Shown here one piece after another: positions 19,701-46,300 of a stretch of 64,000 nucleotides of DNA (position 1 is its first letter; each line of letters starts with the position of its first letter). The notes beneath the pieces were generated by a model. It made no database searches. It worked only from the letters and a program-made list of their open reading frames with translations, and was not told the origin of the DNA. A program made the position numbers and the translations under genes. Source of the stretch: Tubulanus polymorphus (Eukaryota > Animalia > Nemertea); the NCBI RefSeq assembly GCF_964204645.1, contig NC_134027.1, positions 22,964,560 to 23,028,559 on the forward strand. Direction: 5' to 3'.

Positions 19701-20578
19701 TAAAATGTCGAAACAACAAACGATGTTTGGATGGCTTTGCGATGTGGTTAGGTCTATTTCTCGCCTGTTGGCTGCCTAGAATGAATTGGCAACTTTGTGA
19801 TGAAGATGTCAAATGATGCCGAGGAACTTTTGAAATTAACATTGCTTGGACTCAAAATAAGCGTTGATAGGTATGAATTCAGAACGTCAAACCAACACGC
19901 AGGTCTTATAGAAAACTATCTACTCTTAATATTACAAATAATTGATAATAAATCAGTGAGCTCACAATATAGATATTAGGCATAAGCATTATTGATGATG
20001 ATATCTTGTAACTGTATTAGTCCTTTTATAGAGAAATATCTGATTGTGCTATGTTCTTATATAAACAGTTAATTAAGTCAAGTTAAGTTCTTGTATTTCT
20101 CTCTGACACCTGTTCCCAAACCCATCGTGGAGATTTTTGTTTTCTTCCAATTTTAACGTGGCAAATGAGTATTTTACACAGATATTATGCATGCAAATCG
20201 AAGGGCTAGATTTAAATCATATTTCAAAATCAACCCTACCACATTGAAAAAACTGTTAGAAACCAGCAGTGTTTTGTTAAAATACTACAAAATGGACGTC
20301 GGATCCAGTTTCACCATGATGTCCGTATGTAACTTTCAAACCTAATAGAGAACTGTAGAACTAGATCCAGAAATGGCTCTCCTAAATATTGCGATTGTTT
20401 CAGGGACGGATTTCGCAAGAGATCACGAAAACCTGTGAGAACGAAAGGATCTGACCGAGGTCCAGGAATGGCACCAGACGTATCCTCGACAGTCATTTGA
20501 TATCAGCGATAACATGCTACATACAATCCTTAGAACCTCGCTCGACTGAACACAGTGGATGAGACAATAATACAAAAA

Positions 20579-23500
20579 TCAACATTTCTTTTCCTGCTGC
20601 TCTTTTTCTTCACGTTGTCTGCGTCGTTCGGCCTCTTCTGCTTCCAAACGAGCGACGAGTTCAGCTTGAACTTGCGGCTCAACGACGCGACCGAGTTCTG
20701 AGTACGTCGAAAAATCATCGAAATCACCGATAAGCACACCAGGGGGCGCTTGAATTTTGACGTTGTTCACGACGTGTAAATAGATCGGTTCTTTTCTCAG
20801 TTCTTCTACATCGTCTGCATTGAATGCAGGGTTGTCGACACCACAGTTAACGTACTTCACGATATCCCCATCGTCATTGTTGTAAACGTCTTGATAAGGA
20901 TTCTCTTTGTCGCCAATTGTTTGATAGGGATTTTCTGAAATCATACGCGTAACAACATTTAGTGAATTCAACAAACAATCCGTCAAACGATTCAGTTGGC
21001 CAGTCTACATCTGGGAATTGAAGGTTACAATAAATCTATCAAACCCTCCCGCATAAAAGTGGCTGCTTTCTAAAATGCCCATGACATCGTCAAGTCTGCC
21101 CACTAGTGATTGGATATTTACTTCACGCCCTATTTTCCACAATAAACTCTGCCTTACTTGGACTTCTTTTCTTTTCCCTTTTAGAAACGGTATTTTAGAG
21201 TTAGCGTATCGGACATCGTACAGAATTCTGATTCTCTCGTAAGAATCGGTGTACACGTAGAACTCACCCATTTCGTAGTTTCCATTTCTCTCTGCTTTTT
21301 TCGCCTTCTTTCCTTTACGCGTTTTGTTTTTATCGACTTGCGAGTACAGTGGTTCTGCACTATCTAACGACCCTGAAGAGAAAACACGGGATGTGAATAT
21401 CTTAGAAACAAATTTCACGTCATACTTTTTCTCGAATATCTAATTTGGCATTTCATTTTGTGTAGCCAACACATTTCTTTTCTTCGAAAAAGTTTCTGAA
21501 TGTACTTTTGCTACAAATAAAATCCCTTTAGTATAGATTTCATTCTGTGCATTTCACCTTTAGTTTTCTTGTTCTTGCTTTTATCCACATTGGAGTAAAT
21601 TGGATCAGTACCGCTTGCACCATTTACGACTGAGAATAAGCCACAAGTTTGAAAAAATTGGCAAAAACAATTTCAAACAATTCTATTCGAGAAAATCATT
21701 GTCATTTCATGTGTTATTCGTGACAACATTCGCATTCTTTACAACAACAACGATTCAGTAGTAATACTAAACTGGGAGTCATGATTTCAATGATTGAGGA
21801 AAATCATGATTAGTTTCCTAACAAAACTTTTTCATCGAAAGTGACTTTATTGATTCTGTAAAAATTATCACGCGTTTCTACGGCAATTGACGGCACTCTT
21901 CGTGTTTTCAATGATTTCATCGCATCGGTAAAATCATGATAAGTTTCCAATGTAAGCCTCTAATGTAAGGTACACCGTAGTCTATGCACAAATGGTGGTA
22001 TGGAATTGTGCACGACCAATTTCATTAAATCTTTAGTCTAATACATCGTAAATAAAAATCGTAGCGGAAAAATGCTTTTTGATTTTTTTTCACTTTATCT
22101 AGTTGGTTTTCATAAAACGAAATTTGAAAGAGTAAGATTATTTCCATTTCCTCTATGTAACTATGTGTATCGGTAAGTTCTTTGTGAATATACGGCACAT
22201 GTAATCCTGCTATTCTAAGGGCATTTCACCAAATACGTTGATCGGTTCCTTGGTATCATTCTAGATTTGAAAAACACTTGCTTACCTTGATTCTGATTTC
22301 GTTTTTTATTTTTGTCGACCTGTGCGTAAATCGGTTCCCCTGAAAATAATAGAATTCAAAATCTATTCCGATCGCCTCTACCATTCTTCTGGTCAATGAC
22401 CGAGCAAATGATAGGTTTTTATAGATTGAGCCATCAATATTGCATCATTTGGCAATTCCCGAATATAACTAATCACTGTACACTACAGGACATTACCGGA
22501 CATAACCGATCACTTCGATCATTACGTCCAAAAATACGAACCTGAATTCGCTACACTTTAAATCAAGCTTTACCTTATCGTGAGATTAATATGCATGGCA
22601 ATCTTTGGACTTAGATATTGAGATAATGAATATGTTAATTGATTCGCGGCTCGGAAATACTCGGTGGTTTTACGGAGATATCCGGCAATATCGATCGGTC
22701 CAAAAAATCGATTAATTAAGATAGGGCCTCGTAACATAAAGATAAAACTCTTACCAGTTTTCTTGACTCCATCTTCCGAAACTGCGAATATAGAAATGGA
22801 TCTATTTAAGTACTTATAATGTATTAGTTCTAATTCAGTTATGACAATATATGTGATACAGTAATAATACGTTAAATCCTACAATTGTAAATAGGCTAAA
22901 AAGTTTATTCTAAAATTACTTGTGATAATTCGGGGTATAACTGCAACCCTCCTACGATCAGTCTTAAAGGGGGAAGGATGAAGGAGACTTCTAAGATTGA
23001 AGCAATTTTTTCGTTGATTCTTTTAACAAACCTTCTACTCAATTCAGTAGATCAGAAAATATCTTTATTTCAATAATGACGAAGTTTCAATGAAATGAGG
23101 AAATGAACCGATTGCTTACCAAGATCGTTAATGCTCGAATACGGATCTGAAAATATGAAACAAGTTTAAGCATCTCATAGACGGTATTGTGATTGAAGAA
23201 TATTTTATAAAAGTCCGATCTTTAACTTAAAAACTCTGCGCTGAAGATAGAAAATATTTTTTTTCTTTTTCTTTTGCCCATTCGGGATCTAAAAGGACAA
23301 AGACAAACGAGAATTTCAATAGTGTTTTTCTCTGAAGAAATAGAAAACCCTAATAATTTGTGCCAATTTTATTACTAACAAAGAAATTCTCGCAACATTT
23401 AGGGATACGATATAACTGAAAATATTGTGGGGATTTCATTGTCCATAATGCAATATAAAAACCGACTGACAGAGATTTTCAACAATAACGTTGTGATATG

Positions 23501-23794
23501 AAAACTGTTGCAATAATCTGTTTGCGTAAATTTTCGGCGTGTTAGAAAGTTGTAAAATTGTGACATTACCGAAGTCATCGGTAGTGACGTGATTATCTTT
23601 GGTCGGTGGACTTTTAGGTTTTTTGTTGACTCGCGCGTACACGTCACCTAACAAGGAAAAGAAAACAAATATTTGAAAAAATATATGTTTATTGTTTAGA
23701 TGAGATGAAAGGTTTGAAGTGGCAAATTTTACCTCTAGGTCCGGCTACATGTCCATCGATATCGTTATAGTTCGGAGGAGGAACTGAAGCCGGA
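20579..23794 (-). CDS. Cytoplasmic tail exons of copy C (13 Tyr; PPPNY, VYARV, EPIYAQV, DPIYSNV, EPLYSQV, YQTI-x6-YQDV, EPIYLHV, STYSEL; C-terminal charged helix)
   Basis: Eight in-phase exons translated by hand; they overlap ORFs 23436-23654, 21005-21418 and 20579-20986. Confidence 0.85.
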
Positions 23795-26700
23795 CTGAAA
23801 AAAGGGAAACACACCATTTTGTGGTGATCGCCTGGGCTGGAAAGGGAATCTCTGACATGGAATTAAGTTAAACAAATAGGAATTGAAATCTCTAGTTTCT
23901 ACCTTCTCGAGCTATTTTTTGTCCAGATCCATTGACCTTCTCGACGCCTTTTCACGAATAGCAACACGAACACAATGACGATGAGGGCGAGCAACAATAC
24001 ACCCACAACAACACCTCCGATCAGTGCAACATTGGTAGTAACTAAGAGGATAAAAAATAAAATGTGCAAACTATGACAAGAAAGTATCGATGTGCCTGAA
24101 TTTCACCAGAGATATTTTTCATTAAGAGTGAACTAGCAAAATGACTATAGGTATGGGATATCTATGCATTTATTTGTTTTTTTATCTTTCTTTTCAACGT
24201 TTGGATCTTGGTTTACCGACACTAACCCGCAAATATTTACCTGGAATTTCTACCCGATGGCTCAGAATTACGTCACTACTCTCAATTACAATCAGTTTGT
24301 AACTGTATGCTTTATCGGGATCGATTTTAATCTCAATACTAATCGGCCCACCAGTACTTTCTTGTTTCGTAGAATTAAAACATTCGTTTGTATGTTTGAT
24401 ACAGTATTTCACGTAGACGCTGTACTTCGACGGAAACGACGACATTTTTATCAGGACACTATTTCCGTACTGTGTTACTGTCGCTTGCTTCAATACGGTG
24501 TTTATAGCGCTTGGAATAGCTAGAAAATTAGAAACCATGAATTCGATTTCAAAAAAGACCGGAAAAAATTATATCATCAACACAATCATCTAGACTGGAG
24601 TACGTGCAGCCAATCCCACTAGCTGGAAATAACAGCCGAGTTAGAATTCTCAAGATCGGGGATCAAGGAGGCACGTATGTCGCTACGTATTTGCATTCCG
24701 ATATTCGTATCAGTAGGAAGCTCCTGGACTCTGTTTTTGGGCTTAAAATGATGCAACATCGAATGTGAATGATATCGGAAAAGTTAACTGGTAAAATAAT
24801 CCGAAACAGCTTTTCGTTCGATTGTCGTCGTTGACGGTAACAATCACGAAATGAGGAATTTCCGAAAATGAGGAATTTAACTCAGCGAAATTAACTTTAT
24901 TAATTTCACATAAAGAAATGTGCGTTAAAGTAATCGAACGAGCTTAAGGATAGGCCTGTATTTATATCTTACTAAACTTACATATCTTACAAGTCTCCAA
25001 TCTTACCATTTGTTCTAGTTGTAACTATATCAGTAAATGGACTCGTATTATCACCGGGATTTAAGTTGACACTTTTCACTTTGAACTGATAATCAGTTGA
25101 TGGTTTTAATCCGGTTATTTTCGTTTGCACCAGTTTTCTATAACCGGGATCGGGTATTTCAGCTTTATTCACGAATTGTGTAGCATCCGATACCCTGTAA
25201 CTGACGGCGAACGTTTGTTTGGCACCACCCTCAAATTCAGAAACCCAACTCAGCGTCACAGAAACAGCTGTTTTTGCAATAACTGACAGATTTGACGGTG
25301 TTTGGGGAGGTCCTGAAACCACAAGAAAAAAAGAAATTCGTTTTATAGTTCGCACGCTGCACTAATTTATTGGGATCCCAGTTCAGCAAAATGCAGTCTC
25401 GTGTTATTCAGAGTGTTACTCCGGTATTAATCTGAAGCCTGGGCCCAGCATCCCTCCAGACATCCGACTACTCAAATATTATCAATTGATGAACGACTAA
25501 CAGAAGAGTTATCATTGAAAATAGGTTTCAGGCTGCAATCGATATTTGCAGGTTTTATTAGAATTGATAAGTGGTAAATAGTGCTATAGTGCAAATGACT
25601 GCGAATTTCTGAAAACAACATATCTTTCGAAATAGCACATGATTCTTACCAGTTTCTGTGAGTTTCAGTGTTATATCTATGCTACCAACTGAATTATTGA
25701 GTCTACACGAATAGGATCCATAATCAGATGCCTGAACTGATTGTATGTTGACATCCCACTGCGTTAAACTGGTATTTTTCATTACATGGCGGCCCTTTGT
25801 TGAATTGTGTCTACAGTTGAGAGTTGTCGCTAGCGGATTTGCATCGAAGTTTATCGTAAATCTACCACTTTCTCCTATATTTGCGGCAACGGGTTCAACT
25901 TGTGAAGAAAGCTGCGGTGCATCTATTGTAGAATTAAACTAAATATGTAATATTGTATCTAGTGTATATAGAATAAAAAGTTTCTAAAAAATACAAGAGT
26001 AATTTTTTCAGCACTTGAAATATGAAAGAATGTACAGTGTAGTCTCAAATGAAGATATGTACCAGTTGCACTAATGCTATGAGGAATTTGATCCCCTTGA
26101 GTAACGGAGTAGAATTAAAACAAAATACGGATGAAATTTGGAATAGAACTTAGAATAAAGATAGATGAATTGCTGAGAATGTTTTCCTTCGATGCGAAGT
26201 AATTATGTCCCCCGGACGCTGTCGTTGTACTGTGTAACTGGTTGTTTACATTGGACATCGGTAATAAAATATCACTAATATATGGAGTAAAGATCACTTG
26301 TGAGAATACAACGACGCTTTCGTAGGGCTTTTATTTGTTAACTCTAAGATGAGATAAATATCAGTTCACTATAGTCATACTGGTTTTTTTACAGCGGACA
26401 TCGACGATAAAAAGTAACTGATAAATGGAGTAAAATTCCCTCGTATGAAATCATATCAGTTTTTTACAAGTTTTCTGTGACGAATTCATCATTCGTGGAT
26501 TTGATTGATATACGGTCATCTGATATACACTAACTACTATGTTTTACAAAATTAAAAGATAATTTTTCATTTTATTGCCTCAGTAATCCAAGACCTCTAC
26601 CGAAACGGCTACGAATACATCTGATTATTGTGCATCATCATTTATCAAGAAGATAAATCGCCTATTCAACACTTACACAATATAGACAACGTCATGGATG

Positions 26701-29700
26701 TGTTGACACCATTGACAGGTTGACTGTTTTGATAAGCTGAACATCTATATTGTCTTCCATTTTTATCCTTATCAGTTGGTACTACTAGACTACTAGTAGA
26801 TGCCCGTGCACTGTGAGATCCGGGTTTATGATTTACTGTTGGATTGGGTGAAATATCTGTCCAAGTTGTCGTCCCAGAGCTGTACGCCCAGACAATTGTA
26901 GACACCGGGTTACTTGAGTCAGTTGTACACGTCAGAGTTTTTGATGTACCGTGAACAACTGGACCGTTTGGAATTTCAGTCAGTGTTATTGACTCTGGTG
27001 GAACTGAAGATATAACATTGAAAGTCATGATTGATACTTTTTATTGGATGGTCTAATGCAACGTCAGCTCGTGTAATATCGGCTTTTTGGCACAAGGAGG
27101 TAAAACTGTACGGACAATAAACTGATAACATTTTTCTTACTCCGCGATATTTCAAGGTCGTAGGCAGTACGACTGTGTATTGATAAGCCGGTTTTCGGTC
27201 TCTATTTTCGATTAGAAACTTGTCTAATAAGAGACCACAGAACCAGTGTAATTGAGATAGATTGGTTGCCTGTCGAACTCAGGGCAACTTGCATTTCCTG
27301 TCCGTTTGAAAAGACAAGGCATCCAGTCTATGTTCCTGATACCGATGTACCGAATCACGCATGCGCCACACCTCAGTAGGAAGTAAACACTGATGATATA
27401 CACTGACATACGCAATGGTCCGTCCGTCGGCACTGTTTTATACGACGGCGTCCTAGAGACATTAATCTATTTTTTATTTTCACTTTTCCGGCCATAATTA
27501 TCTGCGTGTTTAGAAAGGCGCAGAAAAGTCTCCCATGAATACGATTGCTGATCCAGGCCTTGACCGCAAAATTTCTAATGCACAAATTAAAACGGCAAAA
27601 ACAGGGATTTGAGAAAATTGTCAGCTTTTCCTGACAATTTTCTCAAATCCCTTTTCAACGCGCTAGAAGAGGGATTTCTCACCCACGTTTGGGTGCCCTC
27701 ACCAGAACAGGGTTCCATTCAGGCGCTCGCGCAAAAACAAGAAATTACGTTTTTTTTAATCTTAAGATAGGGATTGACACTATCTAATTTGATCGGTAGA
27801 TTTCGTAAGATTTTTTTTTGTTTTGATTTAGTGTCCCTACAAACCTACCACATCAGCCGGGAGCAAATCAGGGGTTTCGGAAATCGAAGGACATTTACAG
27901 TTGTTGGATCGGCGGTTGAATATACGGAATATTTTGTTTGAATTGAAGTATATCTGACTCCCCGTAACCTTGATTCAAAATTATATGTTTTCTTGATTTA
28001 CTTTAGCTATTCAATTTTTCTAACACGCAGAGAAATCCGGCGGACTTTTCTGCACCTTTCTAAACGCGCAGATAATTATGGCCGGAAAAGTGAAAATAAA
28101 TTAATGTCCCTAGGACGCCGTCGTATTTTTAAGTCAGAATTGATTTATTTTTATAGACAAGATTACATCCAGATTCCATGAACTATGTAGACTCGACCAG
28201 AGCGGGAAGGCTGTAACTGTGTACAGAATTTATTCTAACTGCGCATGTCAGTTCTTCTATCGAAACATACAATGAGGAATAGAGTCCGAACCCCGTAATC
28301 GTGCATAGATTCGCCCCTCTTAGTTGCAGAGTACGTATTTCTTAATACGTCGTTGCGGGGATGATTAACGTGAACATTATATGCCCCGTTAGTGAGGAGG
28401 AAGGTCATAAAAAACTACTGTATTCCTATAACCTCAAAAATCGTACATTCAAAAGTCCTGAGTGAAGGGCATGAATTTTGCGAGAAAATTTAAGAAAAGT
28501 GTACAATTTCCTACGACAAGCGACCTTGATAATATCGCAAAGCAGGAAAAATACGGTAAACATAACATACGTACACTATCGTCCCCTTGTGTAAAACAGC
28601 CGACATTACACGATTTGACGTAACATTTAGCTGATGTTTTAACGGTAGACTATAGTATTTATCAATGTAAAGGCTAATCAATGAAACACTGATTCAGTAA
28701 AACCAGGGAGGTGGCCAACTCCCTGGTTTTACACTCAATCTGTTGACTATAATTGTTTACTAATACATAATCGGCGCGTTTCTTCACTTAAGCATAATTT
28801 GTTTTCAATATTGTCTAAATCTAGGTATGTTGGACTGGAAGATAATTTGTTTCAATGAAGTGACATTTATTGTAAATACAGCGCATTTGTTGGTTTTCCG
28901 ACTCAAATCGATGAATGTATAACCGTTAAACACATCACAAGCGCTATTCTACACTTACACAATACAGACAATGTCGTGGAGTTGGTGACACCATTAACAG
29001 GATGACTGTTTTGATAAGCTGTACATCTATATTGTCTTCCATTCTTATCCTTATCAGTTGATACTACTAGACTACTTGTAGATGTCTGTCCACTGTGAGA
29101 TCCGGGTTTATGATTTACTGCTGGGTTGGGTGAAATATCTGTCCATGTTGTCGTCCCAGATCTGTACGCCCAAACAATTGTAGACACCGGGTTACTGGAG
29201 TCAGTTGTACACGTCAGAGTTTTTGATGTACCTTGAACAACTGGACCGTTTGGAATATCAGTCAGTGTAATTGATTCTGGTGGAACTATAAATAAATATT
29301 CAAATTCACGCTCCTTCATTAGCCATTCAGGGAAAGCGCATTTATATGAACAACAATCTACAACACTTCATTTGATATCTGTAATATAGTGTTTCATACT
29401 TACAGTTAACGGTAATTGTTGTATCTTTGTAAAGATTTCCAGTTTGACATCTGTATTGAGCCTGATTCATAGTTTTAGTTGCAGTAATAAATAATGTACT
29501 AGTAGCCACAGACCCGTGATAGGCTGCACTAGTTTGATTCGTAGCTGGTTGAGAGACAAGTGGTGTCCATGATGCAGAGGAATATTTGAACCACTGAATC
29601 TGTACAGCCGGGTTTGACGAGTCAGTTTTACACTCCATCTGTTGATTATTGTTAAATAATACACGATCTGCCGGTTTCTTCACCATTGTCAGTGATGTTG

Positions 29701-32700
29701 CTTGAACTAGAAATAATTTGTTTCAATATTGTCAAATCCGAGGATGTTGACGAAACAAAACCACGTCAAAAATAGAACCACATTAACTTCACGAGGTTAC
29801 GAGTAATTTGTAAACAATGTATAGTACTTACAGTTGACAGTTAATACGAATTTATTAGAAATCATTGGTGTTGATATACCAGCCCCTGTAGCTGTACATT
29901 GATATTCTGCCTGGTTATCTGTTTTAGTGACGGATGTTGAATATGTTAGAGGACTAACTCCCTGTTTTACAGTGCTGCCCCCTGGTGTTCTAGATATGAG
30001 CAGGTTCGGTACCGGGTTACCCCCTGTAGCTGTACACGTGAAGTCAACGGAAGTGGAATCCCGAACTGTTGACGTCGGTCCTTGTAATGCAACACTGCTT
30101 GGCGGGTCTGGAATGGACGAGAAAAATATTTTGCTAGCGGAAAAAAACTGAAGAATTGAAGCCGAAACGACATGATTCAAAATCGAATGAATTTCATATA
30201 AATTCTCAATTCACTCTCATTAATGAGCCTCTACGTGTAGTTTAGAAACAGGTTTCCTTTGGTAATTAATCCGGTGCGAAATATTTTCGAATGATCTGAA
30301 ATGATATATTTTAGAACTAATGTATTTTAAACTTACAGTAAACGGTAATCGTTGTATCTTTGTAAAGATTTCCAGTTTGACATCTGTATCGAGCTTGATT
30401 CATGGTTTTAGTCGCAGTAATAGATAATGTGCTAGTAGCCACAAACCCGTGATTGGCTGCACTAGTTCGACTCGTAGCTGGTTGAGAGACAAGTGGTGTC
30501 CATGTTGTAGAGGAATATGTGAACCACTGAATCTGTACAGCCGGGTTTGACGAGTCAGTTCTACACTCTATCTGTTGATTATCGTTTACTAATACATAAT
30601 CTGCCGGTTTCTTCATCATCGTCAGCGTTGTTGCTTGAACTAGAAATCATTTGTTCTCGATATTGTCAAAATCCGTGTGTGTTGACGAAACAAAATTATG
30701 TCAAAAACAGAACCGCAGTTACTTCATGGGAATAACGAGTAATTTGTAAAATATCTGCAGTACTTACAGTAGACAGTTAATCTAACTTTATTTGAAATCA
30801 TTGGTGTTGGTATACCAGCCCCAGTAGCTGTACATTGATATTCTGCCTGGTTATCTGTTTTATTGGCGGATGTTGAATATGTTAGAGGGCTTATTCCCTG
30901 TTTGACAGTGCTGCCACCTGGTGTTCTAGTTATGGCGAGGTTCGGTACCGGGTTACCCCCAGTAGCTGTACACGTTAAGTCAACGGATACGGATTCCTGA
31001 ACGGGTGACTTCGGTCCTTGTAATGTAACATTACCTGGCGGGTCTGAAATTAAAAGTGTTAAAAAGCGATTATCTTGATCGATGAGTTATATGTACAACA
31101 GCAACAGTTTATTCTGTACAATTTCATATTTAAGATTACCGGCCCAGATTCTTTTGAAATGCATTAAAAACTCATATTTATTCCAAGCATAAGCTTTTGC
31201 ATGAAGCTTTTTACGGAGTTATTTCTCTCATTCAAATAGATATAAAATATGAAGTATCGAGTCAAATCCAACAATGCATTCGCATGAATAAATTTCTCGT
31301 ACGTTATTGATGATGTTTTAATTGTTCCGGTTTGCTGGTAAACTGCCGCATATTTTTCAAAGCCGCGTCTCACCCGATCACAATCGTGACGAATAGACTT
31401 CATGTAGAGAAAATATGGTGAATATCGATTGATGGGAAGATTCATTTGAATGAAATATGTATATCTGTTATAATTAATGGGACATAAGGGGTCTAGAACA
31501 CACCCGAATGAATATGGTAAGATACGCCTCAGAAGAGTCCGCGGTAAAAGGGTAAACGCGTTTAGATTCATATTTTGTGGTAATCTGACGATATCTTCTT
31601 GCCTACTTCATTATTCTAGATAATTGCTTTATCGCGATGTGACAAAATGTCATTTGATGAGGATAGAATCTGAAACTTTAACATAATTCAGCCTCATAAA
31701 TGCACTTAATAATAAACTCCGTTAAGGAGTCGCGTGCGTTTTCCTCAGCATTCGACGCAGATATAGGTAGGTAAGGTACCTATAAATATTTCGTTTCTTT
31801 ATCGAAATCGATGAATCACAGATTTGAACAACGAACTCCTTTGAATCCATTGACTGGGTTATTTCCAACAAATTTCTGTTACAAATTGCCTAATATGAAT
31901 ACTAGGTAAATCACGTGTGTTCATCTATCTTAACGTAATACTTACATAGTACTTTGATAGTAATACTACCAGTAACTGATCCTGCTACATTCGATACTGT
32001 ACATGTATAAACATTTGAATCAGTTTTACTGATTCGTGTAAAACTGAGTTTATTATTAGACTGTCCTGATAGATTGACACCACTCCATTTATACGTCAGT
32101 CCTGTAGCTCCAGGCTGTGAACCGTCACATGTGATTGTTAATTGTGAATTCTCCTGTACTGTGACGACGTTGTTGGTGGCGGTGTTTGGTTGAGATGTTA
32201 GGACTGGTCCATTCGGGGGTGCTGTAAATATGAAACTATATTGAAAACCACGGGGGTTTCGGTGGTTCATTTTCAATGCGTCTGCTACATTATAGATTTT
32301 GGTAATTTAAAAGAAGCCATCCATTTCAGAATTAATAAATCAACATGAATCAGTTGTAGATCACAAAATATCCGTGATAAAACGATAAGAGTAAAATCCC
32401 GCAATAAATGAATTGATAGCTAAAAAGTTTACTTCGAATGTAAGAAATATTAACCTCCTTCAGTCTAAAATGACTTGCAAAATAAAACACAGCGCATGTA
32501 CATAAATACATTGTATATGCATGAAATAAGATACGAATTACTGCACATTAAGTAATGGGGACAGGAGTACTGACATATTTTGAAAAATAGATGTAATGGG
32601 GGCTGAAACCTTTATTAAGGTTGACAGAGCGGTCGGAATGAGTACAAATCAAAAGCGGATTCTTACTATGTGGTGTCTATAGTGAGATTGCTGTTTGGAA

Positions 32701-35700
32701 AAGCAATATTGGCTCCAGGAAATTCAAAAGTATGCCCGATTTGCAAAGAATAGAGACTACCCCACCTATCTAATTTCACCCTATTTAAAGCATCCCGTTT
32801 ATGTTCATTGATTCTTCCCTGTTTCCCCAATATAAAAAGGTTACAATCAGGACAGTGAAAACAAAACAGAGAAAGATACTTTATTAGTATTAGCTTTGTG
32901 AAGTGCTTTCTCTAAAACTTTGTCCGGGTATGCAATTTTTTTCAAAAAAAGGTTGATTATGTTACTAAAATGTCAGCGTTGTGCACAAATAAAGTGAAAT
33001 TGACCATGATTCTGGGGCATTTTCCTGGGGCCATAGCCCCTTAATGCCCCAACTAAAAATGCACTTTAATTACCCGATAATTCATTTGGAAATACTGAAA
33101 TTTGCCATCAAACCTTTTGTACGCTAAAATGGAATTGAAACCCACCTTTGAGCTCTCCTTCCATCTAAAATATCATTGCCTAAAAAGTTTTTATCAGAAA
33201 TCCTTAGAAGCTCCAAGGGAAAGACCCTGAACAACCACCACTTTAAGGTAAGCTTGAGTAAATGGAAAGAAATTCAGGTAAGATTCACAGCTAGTAGGTT
33301 TACGAAAAACAGAGAAACCTATAATCCCGAATTAAGATTTTGTATGAGAACATCAAAAAATGGGTTTTTTTTCATCGAATTCCCACTCGAAGGTAAACTT
33401 CTAGGAAGGATAAATAAAGGGAATTAAGAAATGTCAAAAGATGTCAAGGATGAGATCAGTTGACACTAAACATAAAGTATAATCGACGTAACTGCGCCAT
33501 AGAAGAGGCGCGAATATAGGGTAAAATTTCAGATTCAATGTGTTCTATGAAAAGGTTAGCTAGAGTAGGCGATAGATGCCCGTAGCGAAATCATATTGCG
33601 CAAAGAAAATGCCATCATATTGAAAATAGGCTCTTCTAGCGCATAATTCTAAAAGATCAACGAGACAGTTAACTGAGGCAGGATAATTCAAATTACAGGA
33701 CGGGAGTGTACGTTTGATAAAATCTGAAGTGAGTTCCAGAGGGATGTTAGTGATATCTCTATCACTAACAACATTGACTACATCAAACGAAATGAACTTG
33801 TTGCCATTAAGGGTAACATGACGTCTTGTAGTAAATCCATATCTTGTTTGTTATGAGAACCAGAGAACGAACCAAGAAAGGAGAAAGCGTTTTTTCAATC
33901 GAGGATCCAGAAAGATGTCATGAGGGAGAGCCCCTTCTTGAGATGACAAGATGCGTAAAGGGACATTACTTTTTACGAATCTTAGGGGGGCTGTAAGGAT
34001 AAGTCGGTAAGCTGGGTAATCGGCTGGTCAATTTCATTATAAATGTATCATCAGTAGGATGTTTACGTATACTGTGTATTTATTTGGGCAGTCATTTTAG
34101 ACTGAAGAAGGGTGGCAGCAACCACCCGAAATGTTTCTAATATTTCAAATATTAAGTTATCATTCGTAACTCGCAGTCAGTGAATTGTTCAAACCCAGAT
34201 CACATGGTGAATACAATTTCATAGTCACTCTTCGTTACTGAACGCGATAAGAGAAATGATATATTATTCAATTCTTACCCACTACAGTTATTTCCTTTTT
34301 ACTATTTGCATTAGTTGAGAACATGTTCATGTAGTCGCATGACCATGATGAGAGAAATGAGATATAATTCAATTGCTAATTATTCTTACCTACTACAGTA
34401 ACTACTTTTCTACTTTCTGAAAACATGTTCATGTATTGACATGCCCATCCTCCAGCATCAGACATCTGTACATTAGTTATACGTAAACCGTAACGTCCAG
34501 CTGTGACGTCACACTGTCCAGTGTACCGAGGTTCAGTAATAGCTCCACGAGGACAGTTTGTCTTATCAAACGAATAATGTACAGTAGGGGTACTGAATGT
34601 CATACTGTAACCGCAGAAATCTTTACTGGGTGGTGAAACCTGACACTGTACGTCGGTGGTGCCACCTAGTTTTACAACTGCTGGTGTTACAACTGTCGTG
34701 ATTGTCGTGTCCGCTGCATCTATACAATTCTGCTGCTGTCCTAGAATTATTCAATCACCTTAAAACATTTAAAATCGTTCATGTCATCGTGTTCGTATTA
34801 ATCTAGTCTTTTACAAGTAATTTGTACTACATTTGGCCGGGACATACGAAAATCAACGCTATACCGCGAGGTTCGTATTAAGCCATTTCGTATTAACGAG
34901 GTTCCAATGTATATGTACCAAACGATGATCTCTAGCGAGAGTCCGAAACTTGGTGCATTTTCATCTTGATTCTTGAAAAATTAATATTCGATTTTAAAGT
35001 TTTAATTTGTGTATTTACGTAGTGCGTCTCAAACTCATTAAAGACTGAAAAACAATAGCTAAATACTAAGTAAGCGACGAACTAAGGGTAATGATACAAG
35101 TAGAAGAAAATTAACAACCATTGGTGAAACAATATCTGATTGGTTTAAACGATATTTAGAACATCTTTCACTCATATAACGGTAGATCAAGTCTGAAAAG
35201 TTTCTTTTAAGCTATGAATTTATTCGTCCAACGTTTCGACTATACCCCAATAGGAATCCCCATCTTCAGGAATAACGAGTGAAAAAAAATATGACACATA
35301 ATGCCATCGAGAACAAAGGAACCGTGTTTCTCATCACCGCGCACGTCCGAAGAATCAGTGACGAAAATCTGGTAAAAATAGCGCTCGAATAATTTAATAA
35401 TTTCTGTTGGTTTCTTTTCAATGCAAAAAAATGGAATACCCCCTGCTCAATAGAATCCTTGTTTATTATTATTTCTTTTTCGTACTTGGAATTATGTAAT
35501 GTGCATTATCAGCAATGGATCAGGTTATTGATGCGATGTAGATAGATCGGGATTTAAAACTGTCATTTGCCCTGACATTGGAGATTTCGGTAAGCACAAT
35601 CCAAAAGTAAAGACTCGGTTCCCTCATGCCATCTTCAGTGCATTTTCTACCTAAATCAAAATAAGGAAGTTGACTCCCTCAGGCTCCTCTTCAATCCCCC

Positions 35701-36411
35701 TTTCATTACAAGGACTAAGTAGAAATGTATGCCCCCCGCGTCACTTTGGAGAAGCCAGTGCACAATGAGAAACACGGTATGTATTTTGAATGGCGTTATG
35801 TGGTAGTATTTACCTGCTGTAGATCTCACGCAGAGAAGAACAATCACAAACACACACCAGACTACCGGTACATTCTGAATATATATTAGAACAATAAATT
35901 ACATGTGTTTGTCATAAATAAAGTTTTCATTTCTAAATCAATTTAATCGACGTCTTGTTCGTGGACTTAAAACGATTTAACTATTTATAACCATACGTAC
36001 ATATATTTGTAATCGCAAACAGCAATCTATGTAAGATCTATTGACGAATAAGCCACCATAATTGATTTACGTATCTAAACTCGAAATTTTTTGGATCATT
36101 TCATTAATGGCCTTTGCTTTGATGTTGGAGAGCCTAAACAATTCTAAAGCCGTGCTTAAATAAAGTCAAGTCGTGTAAAAATTAATTTGAGTAACTTATG
36201 AATCTGAATATGTAGGCCTATAACCTTTTTTTATTCAACAAATCCATGTACGCAACTAACATATTTTTGGAACTAACACAATTTTCTTGCAGTTGTGAAG
36301 TGACTGTGGTGGCTATAAGTAAGAAGCCAGTGGCCTATACGCGTGTTTTATCACGATTTTACTGCATTATATAGGCCTACATGTACTCACTTGGATGCGT
36401 TGAGTGTTCAT
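20579..36411 (-). CDS. IgSF receptor copy C, apparently intact: SP + V-Ig + 8 Ig + FN3 + spacer + TM + long multi-tyrosine tail
   Basis: Exons (minus strand): 36411-36391 MNTQRIQ; 35874-35814 signal NVPVVWCVFVIVLLCVRSTA; V 34740-34390; Ig 32221-31946, 31043-30768, 30639-30337, 30107-29832, 29706-29404, 29285-28959, 27003-26677, 25922-25650; FN3 25312-25007; spacer 24519-24241; TM 24041-23903; tail 23794-23733, 23647-23570, 23146-23120, 22781-22755, 22339-22286, 21629-21558, 21372-21268, 20934-20579. Splice phases are all compatible and I found no stop. Confidence 0.9.
27441..28125. mobile_element. MITE/non-autonomous DNA transposon with long TIRs
   Basis: TIR tacgacggcgtcctag.gacattaat..ttttcacttttccggccataattatctgcg at both ends; absent from the corresponding site in A (about 4860). 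Confidence 0.8.
32330..34150 (-). mobile_element. Same Penelope-like remnant in the V-Ig2 intron of C
   Basis: Reverse complement of about 39280-41060; hammerhead-like ctgaaga-agggtggcagcaaccaccc-gaaa at 34102-34131. Confidence 0.7.
34390..34740 (-). CDS. N-terminal V-type Ig exon of copy C
   Basis: 351-nt phase-1 exon, QQQNCIDAADTT..VQCQVSPP..YGLRITNVQMSDAGGWAC..VTVV, matching the V-set E-F strand pattern L-x-I-x-N-V-x-x-x-D-x-G-x-(W)-x-C. Confidence 0.85.
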
Positions 36412-37350: not shown

Positions 37351-40300
37351 ATGTATGGAAAGGTAAGGACGAGAGCTACCACGTATTTCATCCAAATTCA
37401 TTTTTGTAGATTAAATCTATGCAGTTCCATTGATTAACTGAACCTTGTGACTGATAAGTGCGTGGTAAATCATTATCTATCGAGATCCAAACGAAAACCG
37501 ATTTCGAAGCCGATATCACACGTGACAAATTAGTAATGCACACATTAATTTTCGGTCCCGGTTTGACAGTGTTATTTATCAACAAAATTTTTTGATTAAC
37601 AAATTCACATCTAGCGCAGACAGACACCCCTGATATTCTAACATCGAGCAGATTGTGAAATCACGCTGCTTCAGTACATTATCTTCATTACAGAAGTGTT
37701 TGGTAGGGATTGTGGTATCATTTCTAATGTGGACAGGAATAAACGGTAATATACAGTACAGATTTCTACTTGCAAAGCCGACCACAAGTGACATGATTAA
37801 TTCATTTTGCATTGTGAATGTAACAAAAATCATTAGAAGACATGCAATCATCGGCTTTTCATGATATTTGACATCAGGATAAAAGTTCCTTAATCCATTA
37901 GTAAGAACGCCCTAATCTGTGTACGCTGTAGATGATTGAAGAAATCCCGCAATTCGAATTTGAATGAAAAATTTATTTCTTTATCGTAAAAAAATTGAAT
38001 TGTGGGATTTCTTCAATTAATTCCTTAATCCACTTAGTATCCATAATGACAAAATATTTAATGCACCACAGGCGATCCTGTCCTTTTTCAAAACAAATTT
38101 GACTATGGGAAGTTTTGTACATCCTCTACCCGACCACCATTACGATTTCCACAAATTTCCACTCGGACTCACTTCAGCATATCAAGGCTTGACAACTAAT
38201 AGATTGACGCAGTTTATACTCAAAACAGATGACCTGATACGCTTCGTAATTCAAATACATATTCTTACAACGATTACTCGGACGCAATTTCATAAACGTT
38301 TTTCCTGATAAAAGTTTATACCAAAGAAATGCACTGTTAATGATATCTTGAGCAAATACAATCTGTGAGCAACGTTGCTAGAATGTTTTGACATCATATG
38401 AATGATTTCATGCGAAATATGTAATGAATAAATCATGTTTCTAAAATCATGTTGATTCAGTTTATAATCAGCCTTGCGTAAGTAGAAATCTGACTAATTC
38501 CACGTTTTTGTCACGAATTAATAATTATTTGTGGATAGTTTCTCAACACCCTCCTCTGCATTTATAGAATTAGGCTTCGTATATTGGCTTCAACTCGAGT
38601 TATGATGGACCAGTTGATATCTGTCTAAAATCGACTATAAACAAACTTTCATTTCCATTGAAAATTTCAGGTCAGCAACAGAACTGTATCGACGCAGCGG
38701 ATACGACAATCACGACAGTTGTAACACCGGCAGTTGTAATACTAGGTGGCGCCACTGTCGTACAATGTCAGGTTTCACCACCCGGTAAACATTTCTGCGG
38801 TCTCAAAATAACAATGTCTGGCCAATCGGGACAGTTTGCATTTGACGAGATTAACTGTCCTAGGGGAACTATCACTGGGTACACTGGACAATGTGACGTC
38901 ACAGCTGGGCGATATGGTATACGTATCACTAATGTACGGATGGTTGATTCTGGAATGTGGTGGTGTGATTACATGAACTCTTTTCCAAATAGTAACACAA
39001 TAATTATGTAAGAGGTAACAATGATAAAAAGTTCTTTCTCTTATCGTGTTCAGTGATGAAGAGTAACTGTGAAATCGCATTCACCATGTGATCTGGGTTT
39101 GAACAATTCACTGACTGCGAGTTAAAAAATGTGACGAATAATAACGTTAAAGCTTTATTAATCAAATTAACGTGAGTAAAACGTGTAACATTTTACACGT
39201 ACTCTTATCATTTGTAGCATGTTGATTTATAAAAGTAAGATCCCGCGATAAAAGAATTGATTGCTAACTTGTTTAATATTTGAAATATAAGAAACATTTC
39301 GGGTGGTTGCTGCCACCCTTCTTCAGTCTAAAATGACTGCTCAAATAAATACACAGTATATGTAAACATCCTACTGATGATAAATTTATTATGAAATTGA
39401 CCAGCCGATTACCCAGCTTACCGACTTATCCTTACGCCCCCCCCCCCCCCTAAGATTCGTAAAAGTAATGTCACTTAACGTATCTTATCATCTCAAGAAG
39501 GGGCTCTCCCTATTGATATCTTTCTGGATCCTCGATTGAAAAAACGCTTTCTCCTTTGTTGGTTCGTTCTGTTGTTCTCATGTCATACACGAAATGGATT
39601 TACTACAAGACGTCACGTTACCCGCAATGGAAACAAGTTCATTTCGTTTGATGCAGTCTCTCTATTCACAGCATAGATCTCTCTGCAACTCTCTTCAGAT
39701 TTTATTAAACGTAAACTCCCGTCCTGTAATTTGAATTATCCTGCCTCAGTTAACTGTCTCGTTGATCTTTTAGAATTATGCGCTAGAAGAGCCTTTTTTC
39801 AATTTGATGGCATTTTCTTTGCGCAATATGATTTCGCTACGGGCCTCTATCGCCTATTCTTGACTAGCTAACCTTTTCTTAGAACACATTGAATCTGAAA
39901 TTTTACCCTATATACGCGCCTCTTCTATGGCGCAGTTATGTCGATTATATTTTATGTTTAGTGTCAACTGATCTCATCCTTGACATCTTTTAACATTTCT
40001 TGATTCCCTTTATTTATCCTTCCTAGAAGTTAACCTTCGAGTGGGAGTTCGATGGAAAAAACCCTTTTTTGGATGTTCTCATACAAAATCTTAATTCGAG
40101 ATTAGGTTTCTCTGTTTTTCGTAAAGTTACTAGCTGTGAATCCTACCTGAATTTCTTTAACTTACCTTAAAGCGGTGGTTGTTCAGGGTCTTTCCCTTGG
40201 GCCTTGGATTTGTGATAAAAACTTTTTAGGCCATGAGATTTTACATAGTATGGGAGCTCAAAGGTAGGTTTCAATTCCATTTTAGCGTACAAAAGTTTTG

Positions 40301-43300
40301 ATGGAAAATTTCAATATTTCCAAATAAATGATTGGGTAAAAGTGCTTTCTTGCATTTTTGGTTGGGGCATTAAGGGGCAATGGCCGCTCAAAAATGCCCC
40401 AGAATCATGGTCAATTTCACTTTATTTGTGTACAACGCTGAAATTTTAGTAACATAATCAACCTTTTTTTTAAAAAAAAACTTGCATACCCGGACAAAGT
40501 TTTAAAAGTATCTTTCTCTGTTCTGTTTTCACTGTCCTGATTGTAACCTTTTTATATTGGGGAAACTGGGAAGAATCAAGGAACATAAACGGGATGCTTT
40601 TAAGAGGGTGAAATTAGAAAGTTGGGGTAGTCCTCCATTCTTTGCAAATCGGGCATACTTTTGAATTCCCTGGAGTCAATATTGCTTTTCCAAACAACAA
40701 TCTCACTATAGACAACACATAGTAAGAATCCGCTTTTGATTTGTACTCATTCCGACCGCTCTGTCAAACTTAATAAAGGTTTCAGCCCCCATTACATCTG
40801 TTTTTCAAAATATGTCAGTACTCCAGTCCCCATTACTTAATGTGGAGTGATTCGTATCTTATTTCATGCATAGACAATGTATTTATGTACATGCGCTGTG
40901 TTTTATTTTGCAAGTCATTTTAGACTGAAGGAGGGTAATATTTCATACATTCGAAGTCAACTTTTTAGCTATCAATTCATTTATTGTGGGATTATACTCT
41001 TATCGTTTTATCACGGTTATTTTGTGATCTACAACGGATTCATGTTAATGTATTAATTTTGATGTGGATGATTTCTTTTAAATTGCCAAAATCTATAATG
41101 TAGCAGACGCCGCATTGAAAATGAACGACCGAAACCCCCGTGGTTTTCAATATAGTTTCATATTTACAGCACCCCCGAGTGGACCAGACCTAACATCTCA
41201 ACCAAACACCGCCATCAACAACATCGTCACAGTACAGGAGAATTCACCATTAACAATCACATGTGACGGTTCACAGTCTGGAGCTACAGGACTGACGTAT
41301 AAATGGAGTGGTGCCAATCTATCAGGACAGTCTAATAATAAACTCAGTTTTACACGAATCAGTAAAACTGATTCAGGTGTTTATACATGTAACGTATCGA
41401 ATATAGCGGGATCAGTTGCTGGTAATATTACTATCATAGTTCTATGTAAGTATTACGTTAAGATAGATGAACACACGTGATTTACCTAGTATTCATATTA
41501 GGCAATTTGTAACAGAAATTTGTTGGAAATAACCCAGTCAATGGATTCAAAGGAGTTCGTTTTTCAAATCTGTGTTTCGTCGATTTCGTTAAAGAAACGA
41601 AATATGTATAGGTACCTACCTATATCTGCGTCGAATGCTGAGGAAAATGCGCGTGACTCCTTTACGGATTTTATTATGAAGTGTATTTAGTAGGCTGAAT
41701 TATGTTAAAGTTTCTATCCTTATCAAATGACATTTTGTCACATCGGGATAAAGCAATTATCTAGAATAATGAGATAGGCAAGAAAATATCAGATTACCAC
41801 AAAATATTAATCTAAACGCGTTTATCCTTTAACCACGGACTCTTCTCAGGCATATATTACCCTATTCAATCGGGTGTGTTCTAGACCCCTTATGTCCCAT
41901 TAATAATAACAGATATACATATTTCATTCAAATGAATCTTCCCATCGATCGATATTCACCATATTTTCTCTCTACATGAAGTCTATTCGATACGATTGTA
42001 ATCGGGTGAGACGCGGCTTTGAAAAATATGCGGCAGTTTACCAGCGAACCGGAACAATTAAAATATCAATAACGTACGAGAAATTTAAATCATGCGAATG
42101 CATTGTTGGACTTGACTCGATACTTCATATTTTATATGTATTTGAATGAGAGAAATAACTCCGTAAAAAGCTTCATGCAAAAGCTTATGCTTGGAATAAA
42201 TATGATTTTTTAATGCATTTCAAAAGAATCTGGGCCGGTAATTTTAATATGAAATTGTACAGAATAATCTGTTGCTGTTGTACATATAACTCATCGATCG
42301 AGATAATCGCTTTTTGACCCTTTTAATTTCAGATCCGCCAAGTAGTCTTATATTACAAGGACCGACGTCACCCGTTCAGGAATCTGCATCTGTTAACGTA
42401 AAGTGTACAGCTACAGGGGGTAACCCGGTACCGAACCTCGCCATTACTAGAATACCAGGGGGCAGCACTGTCAAACAGGGAATAAGCCCTCTAACATATT
42501 CAACATCCGCCACTAAAACAGATAACCAGGCAGAATATCAATGTACAGCTACTGGGGCTGGTTTACCAACACCAATGATTTCAAATAAAGTTAGATTAAC
42601 TGTCAACTGTAAGTACTGCAGATATTTTACAAATTACTCGTTATTCCCATGAAGTAACTGCGGTTCTATTTTTGACATAATTTTGTTTCGTCAACACACA
42701 CGGATTTTGACAATATCGAGAACAAATGATTTCTAGTTCAAGCAACAACGCTGACGATGATGAAGAAACCGGCAGATAATGTATTAGTAAACGATAATCA
42801 ACAGATAGAGTGTAGAACTGACTCGTCAAACCCGGCTGTACAGATTCAGTGGTTCACATATTCCTTTACAACATGGAAACCACTTGTCTCTCAACCAGCT
42901 ACGAGTCAAACTAGTGCAGCCAATCACGGGTTTGTGGCTACTAGCGCATTATCTATTACTGCAACTAAATCTATAAATCAAGCTCGATACAGATGTCAAA
43001 CTGGAAATCTTTACAAGGATACAACGATTACCGTTTACTGTAAGTTTAAAATACATTAGTTCTAAAATATATTATTTCAGATCATTCGAAAATATTTTGC
43101 ACCGAATTAATTACCAAATGAAACCTGTTTCTAAACTACACGTAGAGGTTCATTAATGAGAGTGAATTGAGAATTTATATGAAATTCGTTCTATTTTGAA
43201 TCATGACGTTTCGGCTTCAATTCTTCAATTTTTTTCCGCTAGCAAAATATTTTTCTCGTCCATTTCAGATCCGCCAAGCAGTGTTGCATTACAAGGACCG

Positions 43301-46300
43301 ACGTCACCAGTTCGGGATTCCACTTCCGTTGACTTCACGTGTACAGCTACAGGGGGTAACCCGGTACCGAACCTGCTAATATCTAGAACACCAGTTGATG
43401 GCAGCACTGTGAAACAGGGAGTTAGTCCTCTAACATATTCAACATCCGTCACTAAAACAGATAACCAGGCAAAATATCAATGTACAGCTACTGGGGCTGG
43501 TATACCAACACCAATGATTTCTAATAAATTCGTATTAACTGTCAACTGTAAGTACTGTACATTGTTTACAAATTACTCGTAACCTCGTGAAGTTAATTTG
43601 GTTCTATTTTTGTCATGATTTTGTTTCGTCAACATCCTTGGATTTTGATAATATTGAAACAAATTATTTCTAGTTCAAGCAACATCACTGACAATGGTGA
43701 AGAAACCGGCAGATCGTGTATTATTTAACAATAATCAACAGATGGAGTGTAAAACTGACTCGTCAAACCCGGCTGTACAGATTCAGTGGTTCATATATTC
43801 CTCCACCACATGGACAGCACTTGTCTCTCAACCAACTACGAGTCAAACTAGTGCAGCCTATCACGGGTTTATGGCTACTAGCGCATTATCTATTACTGCA
43901 ACTAAATCTATGAATCAGGCTCAATACAGATGTCAAACTGGAAATCTGTACAAAGATACAACAATTACCGTTCACTGTAAGTATGAAACGCTATTTCAGA
44001 TATCAAATGAAGTGTTGTAGATTGTTGTTCATATAAATGCCCTTTCCCTGAATGGCTAATGAAGGAGCGTGAATTTAAATATTTGTTTATAGTTCCACCA
44101 GAATCAATGACACTGACTGAAATTCCAAACGGTCCAGTTGTTGAAGGAACATCTAAAACTCTGACGTGTACAACTGACTCCAGTAACCCGGTGTCGACAA
44201 TTTTGTGGGCGTACAGCTCTGGGGCGACAACATGGATAAATATTTCACCCAACCCAGCAGTAAATCATAAACCCGGATCTCACAGTGGACAGATATCTAC
44301 TAGTAGTCTAGTAGTATCAACTGATAAGGATAAGAATGGAAGACAATATAGATGTACAGCTTATCAGAACAGTCATCCCGTTAATGGTGTCGACAACTCC
44401 ACGACATTGTCTGTATTGTGCAAGTGTAGAATAGCGCTTGTGATGTGTTTTAACGGTTATACATTCATTTGAGTCGGAAAACCAACAAATGCGCTGTATT
44501 TACAATAAACGTCACTTCATTGAAACAAATTATCTTCCAGTCCAACATACCAAGATTTAGACAATATTGAAAACAAATTATGCTTAAGTGAAGAAACGCG
44601 CCGATTATGTATTATTAAACAATAGTCAACAGATCGAGTGTAAAACCAGACTTTACTGAATCAGTGTTTCATTGATTAGCCTTTACTTTGATAAATACTT
44701 AGTCTTACGTTGAAACATCAGCTAAATGTTACGTCAAATCGTGTAATGTCGGCTGTAAATAATTCATGCCCTTCACTCAGGACTCAGTGAATGTACAGTT
44801 TTGAGGTTATAGGAATACAGTAGTTTTTTATGACCTTCCTCCTCACTAACGGGGCATATAATGTTCACGTTAATCATTTGATCCCCGCAACGACCTATTA
44901 AGAAATACGAATTCCGCAACTAAGAGGGGCGAATCTATGCACGATTACGGGGTTCCGACTCTATTCCTCATTGTATGTTACGATAGAAGAACTGACATGC
45001 GCAGTTAGAATAAATTCTGTACACAGTTACAGCCTTCCCGCTCTGGGCGAGTCTACATAGTTCATGCAATCTGGATGTAATCATGGCTATGAAAATGAAT
45101 CAATTCTGACTTAAAAATACGACGGCGTCCTAGGGACATTAATTTATTTTTTATTTTCACTTTTCCGGCCATAATTATCTGCGCGTTTAGAAAGGCGCAG
45201 AAAAGTCCGTCATATTTATCTGCGCGTTTACAAAGAAGCAGAAAATACGAAATATTTATCTGCGCGTTTAGAAAGCCGCAATATTTATCTGCGCGTTTAC
45301 ATGTATAAATATTTCGAACTTTTCAGCGCTTTTGTAAACACGCAAATAATTATGGCCGGAAAAGTGAAAATAAAAAATAGATTAATGTCTCTAGGACGCC
45401 GTCGTATAAAACAGTGCCGACGGACGGACCATTGCGTATGTCAGTGTATATCAGCAGTGTTTACTTCCTACTGAGGTGTGGCGCATGCGTGATTCGGTAC
45501 ATCGGTATCAGGAACATAGACTGGATGCCTTGTCTTTTCAAACGGACTGCAAATGCAAGTTGCCCTGATTCGACAGGCAACCAATCTATCGGGGAAAAGC
45601 GATTACACTGGTTCTGTGGTCTCTTATTAGACAAGTTTCTAATCGAAAATAGAGACCGAAAACCAGCTTATCAATACACAGTCGTACTGCCTACGACCTT
45701 GAAATATGGCGTAGTAAGAAAAAATGTTGTTAGTATATCCGTACAGTTTTTCCCTCTTGTGTCAAAAAGCCGATATTACACGAGCTGACGTTGCATTAAG
45801 ACATTTTGACGATAGACTATTTCATTTTATCAAAGTACAGACAGATAGACGAAACGCTGATTTTTGGCAGATATGACCGCTCACATAAATGTGTGTAAAT
45901 TCGAGATAATTTTTCCCTTCATTTCAGACCCGCCAAGTAATGTTACATTACTAGGACCGACGTCACCCGTTCAGGAATCCGCACCCGTTTCCTTAACGTG
46001 TACAGCTACAGGGAGTAACCCGGTACCGAACCTGGCCATAACTAGAACACCAGGGGGCAGCACTGTGAAACAGGGAGTTACTCCTCTAACATATTCAACA
46101 TCCGTCACTAAAACAGATAACCAGGCAGAATATCAATGTACAGCTACTGGGGCTAGTATACCAACACCAATGATTTCAAATAAAGTCATATTAACTGTCA
46201 ACTGTAAGTACCCGGATTGTTTTTAATCTAAATCACTCGTTATTCTCATGCAGTAAATTAAAATACTATTTGGTTCCAAACAACCGTTACGTCCTCAGGA

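Follow-up and report, generated by a model that had tools for sequence, protein, structure and literature searches.

What is the end of a second, different V domain, provided with a splice donor of its own, doing in the intron of a receptor gene that already possesses a complete V exon? The question is raised by a stretch of 64,000 nucleotides of Tubulanus polymorphus (hereafter the window, to which all coordinates refer), in which receptor genes are clustered in tandem, each of their domains having an exon to itself: a leader, a V-set domain, several Ig domains, FN3, transmembrane and tyrosine-rich tail. There are three V exons in the window, that of gene C on the minus strand and those of genes D and E on the plus strand, and the segment in question, which we call the orphan, lies within gene C, where and as a preliminary description of this DNA had placed it. 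The parts concerned are the following, the slash marking the exon boundary:

35812..35880 (-): gene C leader (signal peptide) exon, coding part mapped; exact match to residues 6-28 of the RefSeq model P0025
34390..34740 (-): gene C V-set Ig exon; donor TAG/GTAAGA; Pfam V-set E=1.2e-6; this end is used in 6/6 matching RefSeq models
34346..34389 (-): spacer of 44 nt, predicted to be the first intron bases of an incoming exon; contains a TAG in frame and reaches the junction on its 3′ side
34279..34345 (-): orphan V-exon 3′ end, from the F-strand W-x-C to the G strand, 22 codons and a G, then a GT donor, TGG/GTAAGA
32222..34278 (-): intron of the type found in gene D, between the orphan and the second Ig exon of gene C

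The V domain of gene C is carried exactly by six RefSeq models of Tubulanus polymorphus (P0020-P0025, organized as V–Ig×8–FN3–TM), all of which splice directly from this exon to the next Ig exon and skip the orphan; gene models of this type are usually supported by RNA evidence. One of them, P0025, can be placed on the window one exon after another over residues 6 to 1219, only a few residues of the tail being different, and is, judged by this correspondence, a near-identical allele or twin of gene C. The same may be true of the models XP_074646826-832 of this species, which agree with gene C at every residue from 6 to 1219, with tails that differ from the window at a few residues and with the orphan in none of them, their name, ‘nephrin-like’, being an automatic one only. 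At a wider level, the 19 cluster representatives obtained for the V domain of gene C are all Tubulanus polymorphus RefSeq models (17 longer, two near in length), and together with 15 further members from 8 clusters they form the 34 family proteins referred to below. The tail of gene C (19000-24000, minus strand) contains repeated tyrosine motifs of the PIYAQV, PIYSNV and PLYSQV types, in exons that the RefSeq isoforms use alternatively, and among the twins of gene C similar ectodomains are paired with long or short tails.

As to its class, the V exon scores above the Pfam cut-off for the V-set, and the orphan aligns from the F-strand Cys to the G strand; the assignment of F strand, loop and G strand in the orphan agrees with this match, and also with the strands predicted at 96-101 and 111-115 in a structural model of low confidence (mean pLDDT 54). 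The phmmer matches of the gene C V domain are MOG, Skint1 and a light chain. A Foldseek search with the low-confidence model, an AlphaFold one, gave antibody V domains at a best E of 1.9e-3, no match reaching E<=0.001; from these structural results only the order of the strands was taken.

The orphan, read on the minus strand from 34345 to 34279, consists of WSCDYMNMFSTNANSKKEITVV plus a G, 67 nt in all, followed by GTAAG. Its start is 102 nt further downstream than the W codon that corresponds to it in the V exon (34447), and 44 nt separate the orphan from the donor of that exon, for which about 45 had been given. A similarity search of the 64-kb window joined it to the gene C exon end and its first intron bases at E=1.9e-9, and the family motif occurs without mismatch at four places, the three V exons (C, D and E) and the orphan; the doubled exon end was not reported by Tandem Repeats Finder. 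Could it be a product of the assembly, that is, a chimera of two haplotypes or paralogs? The tandem cluster is rich in repeats, and a few residues of the tail are not the same in the window as in the RefSeq model, both of which would speak for such an error. However, one short-read contig of run X1 covers 34192-34496, crossing the orphan junction, and records of runs X2 and X3 cover 34228-34378, in every case with 0 differences from the window; these three runs bear two sample codes and possibly come from the assembled animal, and thus are not to be read as independent individuals. The raw-sequence check that had been proposed for the segment thus came out in its favor: its presence in the DNA is confirmed, the spanning records ruling against an artefact, and a chimera is extremely improbable. 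The D-type intron also contains, at 34088-34145, a short repeat of high copy number whose joints are inverted, and at which the depth of run X5 exceeds 700.

If the segment is real, the next possibility is that it is used. The preliminary description had called it in frame, and the reading frame does run on through the spacer, although the spacer carries a TAG, so that read-through from the gene C exon ends in GKNN and a stop. It had also been said to lack an acceptor, which is the case: the AGs of the spacer lie no further than 5 and 14 nt from the start of the intron and give no usable site, and those further on would leave exons of 23, 16 or 3 nt. Use as a micro-exon was considered and ruled out by these AG positions. 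Neither does the orphan qualify as an alternative or cassette exon, having no usable AG and being missing from all six models. A different use would be that of its donor as an alternative 5′ splice site, which would retain 111 nt with a stop and lead to a decayed transcript or to a secreted single V domain. The orphan donor, with 6/9 matches to the consensus, equals several donors that gene C does use; however, the upstream site is better (7/9), none of the six models uses the downstream one, and the codons of the orphan would in this way never be translated, all of which makes such a use highly unlikely. Runs X6 and X7 have no records on 34200-34440 and are uninformative on expression.

The origin of the orphan is better approached through its differences from the end of the gene C exon, for which two further features are needed:

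34320..34333 (-): block of 14 nt identical to 34422-34435 in the gene C exon, the two ends having no longer perfect match
34307..34318 (-): stretch containing the 9 extra nt of the orphan loop, their placement being ambiguous by one codon in a gap placement test

The two ends are identical at 44 of 57 aligned nt (77%), and the orphan loop is longer by 9 nt, that is, by three residues and not by two as at first counted; it exceeds by the same three residues each of the 15 complete V ends in the family (from 19 proteins, the other four being truncated models). The shortest explanation would be a local duplication of the present exon end of gene C followed by neutral decay, and the shared positions, the 14-nt block and an M-F-S in common are what it would leave. 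But other paralogs are nearer to the orphan than gene C is: among 13 ends compared, its peptide is identical to the V end of P0011 at 16/19 residues and to that of P0001 at 15/19, against 12-13/19 for gene C. Moreover, synonymous divergence between the orphan and the gene C end (pS=0.52) exceeds that between genes C and E (0.19-0.24), and nonsynonymous divergence is lower (pN=0.17-0.19), a signal with a Fisher p of 0.04-0.10 that depends on some 10 synonymous sites. The orphan retains all four family-invariant residues (W, C, Y, M), the open frame and the GT; when 14 random substitutions were simulated in the gene C end, these survived together in 1.4% of trials, and in 2 per 100,000 when likeness to the family at >=17/19 residues was added, these values being rough, as they come from one substitution model with the gap placed to favor the alignment. 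Since the invariants, the frame and the GT have been kept, since pN is below pS, and since random decay rarely preserves them, the divergence would have arisen while the segment was coding. On these comparisons, decay of a copy of the neighboring exon end does not account for the orphan, and duplication with decay becomes very improbable.

The flanks of the orphan also speak of more than one lineage. Downstream, as the preliminary description maintained, it is contiguous with the intron shared with gene D, 34308-34167 matching 38986-39124 at 82% and 34155-28596 matching 39273-44756 at 92%. The corresponding exon of gene D is:

38671..39014 (+): paralog D V exon; a single end before the D-type intron; G strand one base short (frameshift); donor GTAAC

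This exon reads into a stop, and paralog D looks, from its sequence, like a pseudogene or a broken allele, while a D-like end that stays in frame is seen in one loose end of X5. Three loose ends in X1 and X5, of 30 letters each, place a V end and a GT directly before a D-type intron, and those paralogs may have single V ends. Upstream, the spacer is closest to X1 record 6, a 600-bp contig that is alike up to about +35 of the intron and has 8 differences over 141 nt from the gene C V end with its first ~35 intron bases, its remaining 459 nt matching neither the orphan nor the D-type intron. Its V end (on 34356-34496) is 94% identical to that of gene C, it has its own intron, and its depth is about twice that of the orphan contig; no protein matching it was found among those retrieved, and it may be an unannotated gene, a solo V or an allele. 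It is thus a candidate for the donor lineage, known from one short contig that could be an allele. In other words, the flanks of the junction match different paralogs, X1 record 6 on the 5′ side and the D-type introns on the 3′ side, and because of this, of the closeness of P0011 and P0001 and of the synonymous divergence, the two sides belong to different lineages, that of the relic (16/19 to P0011 against 12-13/19 to gene C, pS 0.52) being other than that of the adjacent exon.

The reading that we favor is that the orphan is probably the last 67 nt and the donor of another V exon, left in the intron by out-of-register recombination, and that its source was likely the former V exon of the gene itself. 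This agrees with the scar of V-exon replacement that had been proposed for it, which is borne out by its greater closeness to other paralogs, by the coding type of its divergence, by the D-type intron and by a 94% relative of gene C that has no orphan. The recombination, either a gene-conversion tract or an unequal crossover, homologous at its 5′ end and presumably non-homologous at its 3′ end, would have put the V exon of another paralog and 44 nt of its intron before the end of the resident exon. The junction would have been resolved at the F-strand Trp codon of the latter, with, by eye, microhomology of a few bases at most, and the incoming exon would come, in the simplest case, from the lineage of X1 record 6. 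From then on the upstream donor would have been used in splicing, the relic leaving with the intron and drifting neutrally, while the receptor would have kept its stalk and tail and acquired a predicted new N-terminal binding domain. We infer the resident exon of orphan type and do not see it, since no gene, allele or protein with the orphan loop was found (0 of the 34 family proteins, and none in runs X1, X5, X6 and X7), the search for paralogs that had been suggested thus finding none; a word-based search from the spacer and orphan, covering proteins of 269-2000 aa, gave 1 candidate and none at E<=10, which is weak evidence. Against replacement it can be said that M-F-S and one Lys are common to the orphan and the gene C end, which fits a local origin or a later exchange.

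A very similar outcome could have been reached in two steps, if a tandem duplication of ~100 nt of the gene's own V end came first, and the upstream copy was then converted in register by a paralog, so that the copies no longer look related, leaving a relic that would still be inert. The repeated unit takes in the first intron bases in both copies, the similarity to the donor candidate ends near +35, before the junction at +44, and the end sequence predicted is the same as for replacement in one step. Nevertheless, two events are required instead of one, the first of which the sequence does not demand, and the intron flanking the orphan matches the D-type lineage unbroken; we consider this order of events unlikely, if less so than the other alternatives discussed here.

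Replacement in one step also finds support within the cluster, firstly, because V domains differ between otherwise matching genes, as in the near-twin P0007, and secondly, because there are other partial-exon relics in it. P0025 and P0007 have the same type of leader and 99-100% identity over residues 701-1200, against 75-78% over the first 200, the V of P0007 being D-like; the same gradient of identity separates P0002 from P0016. P0007 was initially taken as the other allele of gene C, a reading set aside as separate models identical to gene C exist, and by its sequence it may be a twin of gene C or an uncollapsed allele. On a second long contig, P0009 and P0013 are near-twins with almost identical membrane-proximal domains and divergent V.

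If the donor lineage is that of X1 record 6, about 3% change per lineage would be the upper limit for the age of the join. Freed segments at 2-3% divergence were still intact in 64-75% of simulated trials, in which indels were not simulated, so the intactness of the orphan at such an age needs no selection. The relic is probably inert.

Selection would keep the orphan if, as was also suggested, it were a stored template, so that a 102-nt deletion between the 14-nt blocks, or conversion, would swap the FG loop of gene C in the soma or the germ line. In favor of this, the deletion would preserve the reading frame and lead to a donor that can be used; the FG region varies within the family, with a mean of 2.8 residues per column where the framework has 2.1; one derived base of gene C, in the Lys codon, matches the orphan; and pN/pS between genes C and E is 1.2 over codons 98-116, the FG region, against 2.2 over codons 43-57 and 0.32 elsewhere, the counts being small and the region chosen after inspection. 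Residues 43-57 form a hypervariable stretch of the V domain. Against a template stand the following: (i) the orphan is a single copy among three V exons; (ii) no RSS-like site (heptamer-spacer-nonamer consensus) was found within 34000-35000 on either strand; (iii) perfect identity extends over 14 nt only; (iv) no protein of the 34 bears the loop, and no joint skipping the 102 nt was found in X1, X2, X3 or X5, whose contigs drop rare variants; (v) in X5, which comes from another sample, 0 reads cover the orphan when 3-6 would be expected (P 0.002-0.07), a figure computed for a low-depth read set from genome sizes of 313-358 Mb (PMC8468679); and (vi) the intactness of the orphan is explained without selection. 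The 17 reads that X5 does have on 34200-34440 fall neither on the orphan nor on the distinctive exon end of gene C, and the X5 animal is probably without this form of gene C and the orphan. A role as template is thus remote.

The comparison with known sources of V diversity leads in the same direction. The J segments of V(D)J loci encode the end of the loop and the G strand, and end in a splice donor without an acceptor of their own, a layout that the orphan shares; however, the orphan starts before the F-strand Cys and has no heptamer or nonamer, and the upstream V exon of gene C lacks nothing, G strand and donor included, unlike the V of V(D)J loci. The pseudo-V sequences of the chicken lie upstream as an array of long donors, some 25 or more in number, and their use is AID-dependent and somatic. 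Like the orphan, these chicken Ig sequences, which are named in PMC11999971, are non-expressed V-like sequences near an expressed V exon; unlike them, the orphan is a single short downstream fragment, 77% identical and with no sign of use. Thus, no donor array of the chicken type with long homology was found in the 64 kb, where there is one fragment with a longest perfect match of 14 nt. The same source offers a lophotrochozoan comparison, the Biomphalaria FREPs, IgSF proteins diversified by point mutation and recombination, although these are secreted IgSF-fibrinogen lectins, and the Tubulanus proteins are membrane receptors without a fibrinogen domain.

A closer likeness is with the Alr2/Alr family of Hydractinia, in which V domains differ between near-twin genes, a pattern also seen in the Tubulanus cluster (for Alr, PMC8282982, PMC9546547 and bioRxiv 10.1101/2022.03.25.485889). 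Gene C has a clustered Ig-Fn3-TM-Tyr architecture and V variability among its paralogs, traits that would make it a candidate receptor of Alr type. Unlike Alr, the Tubulanus receptors have up to nine Ig domains, and the likeness is one of architecture and of V pattern. In Alr, domain 1 is often without the canonical Cys/Trp pin, whereas the Tubulanus V keeps both Cys, and the duplications described in these sources are of whole exons, whereas here an exon end of 67 nt lies in an intron of the gene itself. The swapping of V exons by recombination is an ordinary route of diversification in such gene families, and what the relic would add is a dated marker, the record to the base of one likely V-domain replacement in ribbon-worm receptors. 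No description of this receptor family or of the relic was found among the titles and abstract openings that the literature search covered.

More interesting than the scar itself is a receptor family whose near-twins have diverged in V, their membrane-proximal domains being almost identical and the outermost ones 20-25% different. In another nemertean, Lineus, graft rejection with memory has been reported (PMC2248247), and because of this, together with the Alr2-like pattern, the Tubulanus cluster may be put forward as a candidate with a putative role in nemertean self/non-self recognition. A bolder version would make of the cluster a nemertean self/non-self complex that swaps V exons, and of the relic a latent CDR3-like cassette, which the 102-nt in-frame deletion at the common 14-nt block would join to the V framework, switching the loop in a single step, in the soma or the germ line, without RAG or AID. 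We hold this to be very doubtful, although, if it were true that the relic is recruited by deletion, this would be a new way, and a very simple one, for an invertebrate to diversify its V loops.

Other traces of exon breakage are scattered through the window. The gene fragment B (13116-15300, plus strand) contains an Ig exon, a broken Ig exon and two FN3-type exons, no V exon being found in it, and near 13.6 kb an Ig exon lies in two pieces. A fragment of ~60 nt of an Ig4/Ig6-type exon is repeated in three paralogs, at 4203-4267, 28726-28787 and 44588-44646, each time in the intron that follows one and the same Ig exon, and is, judged by this shared position, an older partial-exon relic inherited by duplication.
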